From: Naegleria gruberi
Lineage: Eukaryota
NCBI GenBank assembly: GCA_000004985.1
Contig: GG739556.1
Direction: 5' to 3' (one strand)
DNA: 1,108 nt
Shown: one piece after another, positions 1 through 984 of the stretch
Layout: each line of letters begins with the position of its first letter
Numbering within the stretch: position 1 is the first letter of the stretch
Notes under the pieces: generated by a model
Told to the model about the DNA's origin: nothing
Databases searched by the model: none
The model's input: only the letters and a program-made list of their open reading frames with translations
Program-made: the position numbers and the translations under genes

Positions 1-129
1 ATGATGTCAGGTGAAGCTTTCAGAGACAAGAGAGAATCCAGAATGGCAGTCAAACAACAACAAGAGTCATCCTCACTCCCATTCCCAGTCAATCTAAGAA
101 AAACAAAATCCGAAGCAGCTGAACAATAA
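1..129 (+). CDS. Probable 3'-terminal coding segment of a gene that begins upstream of the window (alternatively a complete 42-aa ORF). Translation: MMSGEAFRDKRESRMAVKQQQESSSLPFPVNLRKTKSEAAEQ*. Low-complexity, charged tail; product unknown.
   Basis: Frame 1 is open for 42 codons from base 1 to TAA at 127-129. Codon choice is C. elegans-like (AGA x4, CCA x2, GAA, CAA). The stop overlaps a canonical AATAAA. The other two frames are also open until about 93-122, so the frame is not certain. ATGATG at the window edge may be coincidental. Confidence 0.45.
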   Translation: MMSGEAFRDKRESRMAVKQQQESSSLPFPVNLRKTKSEAAEQ

Positions 130-130: not shown

Positions 131-210
131 ATTTCTTATTTTCACAAAACCACAAATTTTCCAAATTTAAAAATATTAAAAAATTGCACATGCTTTAATT
201 TCTTGATTTG

Positions 211-222
211 TTTTTGTTTCAG
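211..222 (+). other. Consensus nematode 3' splice / trans-splice acceptor (TTTTTGTTTCAG|ATG)
   Basis: tttttgtttcag ends at 222 and matches the C. elegans UUUUCAG acceptor consensus. ATG follows immediately at 223-225, the typical arrangement for SL1/SL2 trans-spliced mRNAs. Confidence 0.5.
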
Positions 223-314
223 ATGATTATAACACTTTTCATGTGCACGAATGACTTCTGGATGATCGTGCCTCTACTACCAAGATCTATGATGCAATTA
301 TTATTGTTTATCAG
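223..314 (+). CDS. Putative first coding exon, or a 31-aa micro-ORF if unspliced (stop TAA 316-318). Translation: MIITLFMCTNDFWMIVPLLPRSMMQLLLFI(R). Hydrophobic, resembling a signal peptide or TM helix.
   Basis: ATG lies directly after the TTTCAG acceptor. The frame is open for 92 nt and ends in AG|GTAATAA (donor GT at 315-316), a strong C. elegans 5' splice site. I found no convincing downstream exon in the window. Candidate acceptors at 412, 503 and 569 all lead to stops within about 10 codons. Confidence 0.3.
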
Positions 315-638: not shown

Positions 639-984
639 TTATAATTTACAATTGTCCACCATCCTCAATCTTAACTGCACTACTTGATTGTGACCAAAAC
701 TTGGCATACAATTGTCTGCAGCAAAAGAACCCCCATAAATTGATTTACCACAATCACCACCTTCAATAATAGCATCTTTGAGAACTATTGTATAATGTTA
801 AAGTTAAACTTCATGTTTGGAATACGTACCAGTTGTGAAACTAGTTCCTTGATAACCAAATCCATTTTGACCAGCTGAAATTTTCAGCAACATGTGGAAC
901 TTTGTCGCTAAACAAGCTAATGACAATTCTTCCGTATCGACTACCTCCAATGGATACGTCTAAGAAAACTTGTGGTCTGGTCAT
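639..984 (-). pseudogene. Cyclophilin-A-like peptidyl-prolyl isomerase gene, degenerate. Exon 1 is 984-830, intron 829-785, exon 2 784-639 (stop TAA at 641-639). Exon 1 reads [36 protein letters not shown], then [frameshift], then [15 protein letters not shown]. Exon 2 reads VLKDAIIEGGDCGKSIYGGSFAADNCMPSFGHNQVVQLRLRMVDNCKL*.
   Basis: The - strand ATG at 984-982 opens a reading frame. Its N-terminus aligns residue by residue with cyclophilin A (human CypA [31 protein letters not shown]). The conserved RALCT segment after AENF is missing and the frame shifts by +1 near 877-873. In the original frame a TAG falls at 843-841. In the new frame the GFGY.G..F motif is read. GTACGT donor at 829-824. 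Acceptor ...ACAATAG at 786-785 gives a 45-nt intron and preserves the spacing to the GGD and KSIYG motifs. Stop after about 97 residues, where a full domain is about 165. Confidence 0.6.
785..829 (-). other. Intron of the cyclophilin-like gene (phase 1)
   Basis: On the - strand: ACTG|GTACGTATTCC...ATACAATAG|TT. Reading through in frame instead hits TAA at 811-809. Splicing at 785 restores the cyclophilin frame and the canonical 7-residue spacing between F-x-x and (Q/E)GGD. An alternative acceptor, CAAAG at 777-776, would delete 3 residues. Confidence 0.45.

Follow-up and report, generated by a model that had tools for sequence, protein, structure and literature searches.

The minus strand of the window, the whole 1108-nt stretch of DNA analysed here (34% GC), carries a sequence that resembles the start of a cyclophilin gene, and the question it raises is whether this is a living gene or the remains of one. 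No frame of the window has an ORF of more than 51 codons. Translation shows that the N-terminal ~100 residues of a cyclophilin are encoded by the minus strand at 984-639, and that they are split over two reading frames. The features on which the discussion depends are as follows.

877 to 984, minus strand: exon 1 in frame A, starting with ATG at 984-982; 36 aa, equivalent to cyclophilin residues 1-36 (β1, β2, and the start of helix α1).
876, minus strand: frameshift point, with one extra base between TTC (879-877, the last homologous frame-A codon) and GCT (875-873, the first frame-B codon).
830 to 875, minus strand: continuation of exon 1 in frame B; 15 aa plus the first base of the next codon, equivalent to cyclophilin residues 42-55.
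785 to 829, minus strand: phase 1 intron of 45 nt, GTACGT...TTTAAC (twice, branch-like)...ATAG.
642 to 784, minus strand: exon 2 in frame B, (V)LKDAIIEGGDCGKSIYGGSFAADNCMPSFGHNQVVQLRLRMVDNCKL.
639 to 649, minus strand: end of the ORF, with TAA at 641-639 and a donor-like GTAAAT at 649-644 in phase 1 (AAT T/gtaaat).
1 to 118, minus strand: candidate further exon, very degenerate and uncertain, behind an acceptor-like ttattgttcag/CT at 119/118; frame B ...ASDFVFLRLTGNGSEDDSCCCLTAILDSLLSLKASPDI.

The relationship to cyclophilins is seen in several searches. In tblastn, human CypA residues 1-36 align to 984-877 with 50% identity, and residues 39-87 align to 881-711 in the other frame, with a joint E of 4e-12; the rest of the window gives no match to human CypA better than E of about 1. 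The stitched and spliced product of 100 aa is matched by Pfam PF00160 at 36.9 bits (E 5.3e-9, gathering cut-off 21.7 bits), and the match spans only profile positions 2-58 of 159. Neither frame reaches the cut-off by itself (18.1 and 12.4 bits), and the PF00160 call therefore depends on joining the two. It is the sole Pfam family matched in the six frames of the window. A custom profile built from 54 cyclophilins recognizes frame A with E 3e-16 (nodes 17-57) and frame B with E 3e-6, and gives no match in the other four frames. Comparison with PDB sequences by phmmer matches 122 cyclophilin chains, the best with E 5e-16. An HMMER scan of 1.84 billion representative proteins returns 2123 hits with E no higher than 1e-3, the best at 3.8e-17. 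All of them are canonical cyclophilins with 36-60% identity, and the closest are 48-60% identical over ~75 residues. The N-terminal ~87 residues of the product are colinear with known cyclophilins at ~45-55% identity, and the diagnostic motifs VFxDxxIGGxxxGRIV, VPxxAENF, GFGYxGxxF, GGD, and KSIYG are all found. A chance resemblance in AT-rich DNA has next to no probability; it is ruled out by the independent searches (E 4e-12 to 5e-16), by the colinearity over two exons, and by the diagnostic motifs. The original prediction placed a degenerate, intron-containing cyclophilin-like gene on this strand at 984-639, and these coordinates hold.

The exon-intron structure was likewise anticipated correctly, with a GTACGT donor, a properly phased intron, and a junction at 830/784. 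The intron at 829-785 has a branch-like TTTAAC some 13 nt ahead of its AG and holds two stops in frame B. When it is taken out, SF-TT/V-LKD stands against SF-HR/V-IKD, and the alignment runs on continuously with FHRVIKDFMIQGGD. Frame B, with 875-830 joined to 784-639, reads as 15 aa followed by VLKDAIIEGGDCGKSIYGGSFAADNCMPSFGHNQVVQLRLRMVDNCKL and a stop. In exon 2, the match to cyclophilins can be followed clearly as far as about 711 (CypA residue 87); beyond it, a weak similarity extends to about 645 (LRLRMVDN vs LSMANAG). Because the intron is kept, with its in-frame stops, the locus is not a processed copy. A retroposed origin was rejected on the presence of this intron and on the lack of an A-tract after the homology.

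The locus is probably an unprocessed cyclophilin pseudogene or a partial gene copy, made at the DNA level rather than by retroposition, in an AT-rich eukaryote with short introns. This agrees with the earlier assignment as a pseudogene or decaying paralogue, which is still the best reading. Homology to a functional family, disabling lesions, and a kept intron-exon structure, the marks of unprocessed pseudogenes, are all found. The copying would have taken in a cyclophilin A/B-type gene, whole or at least in its 5' part, including the start codon and a single intron of 45 nt. The frame disruption at 876 would then end translation from the ATG after 47 codons. Even if the frame were corrected and the intron spliced, the product would be without any active-site residue, without a 7-residue loop, and without the last ~60 residues that close the β-barrel. 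The locus appears to be non-functional and to have arisen by duplication of a parent gene, and much of its divergence seems to be older than the inactivation.

The frame change is of the +1 type and occurs at base 876, immediately past AENF and before AGQNGFGY. A frameshift after AENF had been claimed for this locus, and both the translations and the alignment confirm it as one extra base. Past 877, frame A continues for 11 more codons to a TAG, which gives an ORF of 47 aa at 841-984. Base 876 sits in GAAAATTTCAGC, a sequence with A4 and T3 runs. Splicing cannot remove the frame change, because AENF ends at 877, AGQNGFGY starts at 875, and no intron fits; a search for a GT..AG pair that restores the frame at 876 found none. 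The ttcag/CT at 875 was considered as an acceptor and rejected, as there is no upstream donor that retains the cyclophilin N-terminus. Two non-standard decoding schemes were also rejected by reasoning from the frame translations: neither the ciliate code (TAA/TAG = Gln) nor a Euplotes-type +1 shift at AAC-TAG restores the NGFGY homology. A 3-residue gap (CypA 39-41) coincides with the frame change, and a single deletion with a length of 3n+2 nt, such as 8 nt, would probably account for both. Base 876 lies within a perfect inverted repeat at 874-888, GCTGAAA-T-TTTCAGC (arms of 7 nt, spacer of 1 nt), which places a ttcag acceptor-like sequence on both strands. This repeat could have made a slippage deletion more likely, or it may have arisen by chance from the codons for AENF.

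Alternatively, the frameshift may be an artefact, a one-base sequencing or assembly error in the A4/T3 run, where such errors are common; the original prediction itself allowed for a reading error. Removal of one A or one T in GAAAATTTC (877-883) opens a continuous ORF. This is a point in favour of another reading, in which the locus is an intact, highly divergent, and non-catalytic cyclophilin-like gene. The frameshift would then be either a homopolymer error or a lesion that is polymorphic or of very recent origin; the TAA would be intronic, and further exons would lie at 118-1 and beyond the window. Such an intact gene is unlikely. The corrected reading would itself lose the core residue F36, or N35 and F36 together, which weighs against it.

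The conserved positions are heavily altered. A MAFFT alignment of the window product with human CypA and 53 database cyclophilins shows the substitutions H54T and R55T (FHR to FTT), F60A, M61I, and Q63E. The predicted loss of the catalytic Arg is therefore seen as R55T. The predicted loop deletion also appears in the alignment, as the absence of the 7 residues CypA 68-74, in addition to the 3-residue deletion in the helix (CypA 39-41). Within CypA 1-90, 44 columns are at least 80% conserved, and 16 of them are changed or deleted in the window product; the same count in the 54 real cyclophilins has a median of 2 and a maximum of 13. The residues essential for PPIase activity and cyclosporin binding are R55, F60, M61, Q63, A101, F113, W121, L122, and H126 (PMC8192932). 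None of these nine is retained. A101 is aligned to V at best, and F113, W121, L122, and H126 are without counterpart in the window product. This set of changes occurs in no protein among the 1.84 billion representatives, which also speaks against an intact gene.

The C-terminal ~60 residues, with the motifs NGSQFF and WLDGKHVVFG, were not found in any frame of the window by tblastn at E 1000, by six-frame Pfam, or by the custom profile with its filters off. Domain positions past about residue 103 were undetected anywhere in the window by tblastn, Pfam, and a profile search at maximum sensitivity, and a weak alignment to the custom profile persists to the final codons of the ORF (llsmanagk vs LRLRMVDNCK). 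An early stop had been listed among the lesions. This claim stands as far as the TAA at 641-639 is present, but the stop may be intronic, because it lies just inside the donor-like GTAAAT at 649-644. The TAA is either a premature stop or part of the start of a further intron.

A continuation of the gene on the far side of such an intron is suggested by the sequence at 118-1. The acceptor-like site at 119/118 is phase-compatible with the donor at 649, both being phase 1. Frame B of the minus strand has no stop between about 192 and position 1 (64 codons) and is still open at the window edge. In it, NGSEDDSCCCLTAILD is weakly like NGSQFFICTAKTEWLD, and NGSEDD...ILD at 83-36 of the minus strand can be set against NGSQFF...WLD (tblastn E 1.4). 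Against a profile of the C-terminal half, the candidate exon scores 3.0 bits, a value equalled by 34 of 2000 shuffles (p about 0.017, uncorrected), and the significance is lost after correction for roughly ten candidate peptides. Joining the candidate exon to the product brings no gain in Pfam (36.1 vs 36.9 bits). The strongly conserved HVVFG motif is absent after ILD, and the codon-position GC over 1-126 is slightly in favour of the plus-strand ORF. As a further degenerate cyclophilin exon, minus 118-1 is only suggestive. For the intact-gene reading, the paired phase 1 sites (GTAAAT at 649 and ttgttcag at 119) and the open downstream frame with its NGSEDD...ILD are favourable. The similarity that does not survive correction or raise the Pfam score, the missing HVVFG, and the codon-position GC are unfavourable, and the implied intron of 531 nt is odd beside one of 45 nt.

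The cyclophilin fold consists of eight β strands, and the strands after about residue 110 are needed for closure of the barrel. Because these strands are missing, even the frame-corrected product should not fold as a cyclophilin. A single-sequence AF2 model of the stitched product has a pLDDT of 36.7 and no confident fold, which is weak evidence and carries little information. The product of the locus has no look-alike among 5.8 billion protein clusters or the 1.84 billion representatives, and the 47-aa frame-A ORF corresponds to no called gene in the assemblies on record.

The relic could instead be expressed in a new role, as the 47-aa frame-A peptide (MTRPQ...), as a product of ~69 aa in frame B from an ATG at 895, or as a non-coding or antisense transcript. 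The start codon at the expected place, the divergent plus-strand ATG at 1077 only 92 nt away, the intact look of the intron, and the openness of both frames would all suit this proposal. Neither short product has a homologue in the collections searched, and half a β-barrel is not expected to fold, judging from the known structure and the low pLDDT; expression in a new role is very unlikely. It is also rather improbable that the locus is a live member of an undescribed, divergent, and non-catalytic cyclophilin-like family, with an assembly error as the frameshift and exons outside the window, or that it encodes a translated half-cyclophilin micro-protein.

Capture and transport of the fragment by a Helitron- or Pack-MULE-type mobile element would explain why only a 5' half with an intron is present, and a partial, intron-bearing gene is indeed all that is detectable in the window. 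A repeat search gave no convincing terminal inverted or direct repeats, the best flanking pair being 138-154/1041-1057 (17 nt, 76%), and Pfam found no transposase-like ORF in any frame. Transport by such an element is highly improbable.

Under the preferred reading as an unprocessed pseudogene or gene fragment, the small number of lesions deserves attention. Only one frame-breaking lesion occurs in ~100 homologous codons. Frame B is open over 16 + 48 codons, for which the chance is about 0.008 at 34% GC by arithmetic from the base composition. Neutral decay was simulated from canonical parents with the minimum number of nucleotide changes only (46-63 in up to 78 codons), which is conservative. 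The simulations give 2-2.9 expected stops in the 78 clearly homologous codons, and 0 are seen (median P 0.065). Since stops are few compared with neutral decay, much of the divergence probably accrued under coding constraint, at a time when the locus still encoded protein. This would follow from a parent that was itself a divergent paralogue, from a recent inactivation, or from a frameshift that is not real. The last of these options is shared with the intact-gene reading, which gains from the lack of any internal stop in the homologous frame, although the sequence differs by ~45-50% from every known cyclophilin (P about 0.065).

A fairly recent duplication, as originally proposed, is not supported, given that the closest protein is 48-60% identical over ~75 residues and that 16/44 conserved columns are altered. 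The proposed parent, a cyn-family gene of C. elegans, is unsupported as well. None of the 1.84 billion proteins is more than ~60% identical, a comparison limited to protein collections. The 60 best matches in PDB do not include the entries taken to be those of C. elegans CYN-3 and CYN-5. The codon bias of C. elegans favours GGA, CTT, and AAG. The codons of the locus had been described as preferred in that species; they are GGT 8 and GGA 4 for Gly, TTA 3 and TTG 2 for Leu, and AAA 4 and AAG 0 for Lys, which is generic AT-rich usage. The open segments of the window, comprising the two plus-strand exon-like ORFs, the start at 1077, and every non-cyclophilin segment of at least 25 aa in six frames, have no match in the 5.8-billion-sequence protein collection, which should include the annotated C. 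elegans proteome. A literature search on nematode cyclophilin pseudogenes gave nothing relevant. The combination of a GTACGT donor, a length of 45 nt, and TTTAAC in the intron would be as compatible with a fungus as with a nematode.

Relatives are scattered. A protein word search with the stitched product in 5.8 billion clusters gives one candidate over the threshold, P0001, with 46% identity, on a contig with a fungal-type neighbour. A back-translated pattern scan of metagenomes gives four loci with 36-43% identity. The related locus L001 is intronless and is therefore uninformative for a comparison of intron positions. An exact 38-mer of the window is absent from viral, prokaryotic-genome, and metagenome contigs. 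The top hits come from sources as different as plants, a shark, and fungal-like metagenome contigs, and so carry no taxonomic signal.

Among known systems, the single-domain CypA/B-type PPIases (PF00160; human CypA, yeast Cpr1, the PDB 9ls5 chain) are the closest. Their N-terminal ~87 residues are colinear with the window product, and both lack the 'divergent loop' insertion between GEKG and the FHR strand. GQNGFGY and KSIYGG of the window product are also found in the fungal cyclophilin-like P0001. The same two motifs are presumably present in yeast Cpr1 too, and VLKD (VIKD-type) together with KSIYGG is taken here to resemble CypB-like and fungal forms. In contrast to the CypA/B-type PPIases, the window locus has two frames, a substituted active site, 3- and 7-residue deletions, and no detectable C-terminal half. 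It is not a functional member of this group.

Mammalian processed PPIA pseudogenes are dead cyclophilin copies with frameshifts or stops, and they are intronless retrocopies of full-length mRNA. The window locus differs from them in having a 45-nt intron and only the 5' part of the gene. With unprocessed (duplicated) pseudogenes as defined in PMC5187791 and PMC1484586, it shares family homology, a kept intron and start codon, a frameshift, and truncation. It differs in having only one frame-breaking lesion. Fungal cyclophilins with substituted active-site residues exist (PMC8192932). Inactive cyclophilin-like domains of full-length proteins have lost active-site residues, as has the window product. 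However, they have a complete domain and an intact ORF, and their usual changes are at W121 or H126, whereas the window product has lost R55, F60, and Q63 and is truncated.

In annotation, the locus could be called as several short ORFs, or as a spurious 'cyclophilin' with an intron forced over the frameshift. A flag as pseudogene or fragment prevents both. The locus is a further case of decay in a gene family that is ubiquitous and present in many copies, and it raises no new biological question. The heavy change at conserved sites, set against almost clean frames, is a hint that the source lineage has, or once had, a divergent cyclophilin paralogue that is probably not an enzyme.

The surroundings of the locus hold a few further observations. 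On the plus strand, an ATG at 1077 opens MANEKVQVENS..., which runs off the right end of the window at 1108 and is too short to identify; it stands head-to-head with the cyclophilin ATG at a distance of 92 nt. Rfam gives no family above threshold in the window. Two sub-threshold matches at 185-296 (plus) and 179-238 (minus), SNORD24 with 22 bits against a gathering cut-off of 41 and STnc40 with 21.5 against 45, were treated as noise.

At the left end, the plus strand is open from the first base, and 1-129 reads as MMSGEAFRDKRESRMAVKQQQESSSLPFPVNLRKTKSEAAEQ and a stop. The stop is the TAA at 127-129, contained in an AATAAA hexamer (124-129). With 43% GC, 1-129 is richer in GC than any other part of the window, and its codon-position GC of 0.50/0.43/0.33 is coding-like. 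It looks like the 3' end of a plus-strand gene, and its ORF has no match in the 5.8-billion protein collection.

An exon-like stretch follows on the plus strand at 213-320, for which no protein or Pfam match was found. It begins behind tttgtttcag/ATG at 222/223, continues as an open stretch of 92 nt that reads MIITLFMCTNDFWMIVPLLPRSMMQLLLFI.., and ends at a CAG/gtaata donor at 315. The AATAAA stands about 94 nt upstream of it, and this spacing recalls what is presumably the arrangement of nematode operons with trans-splicing, and this operon-like spacing may be a coincidence.
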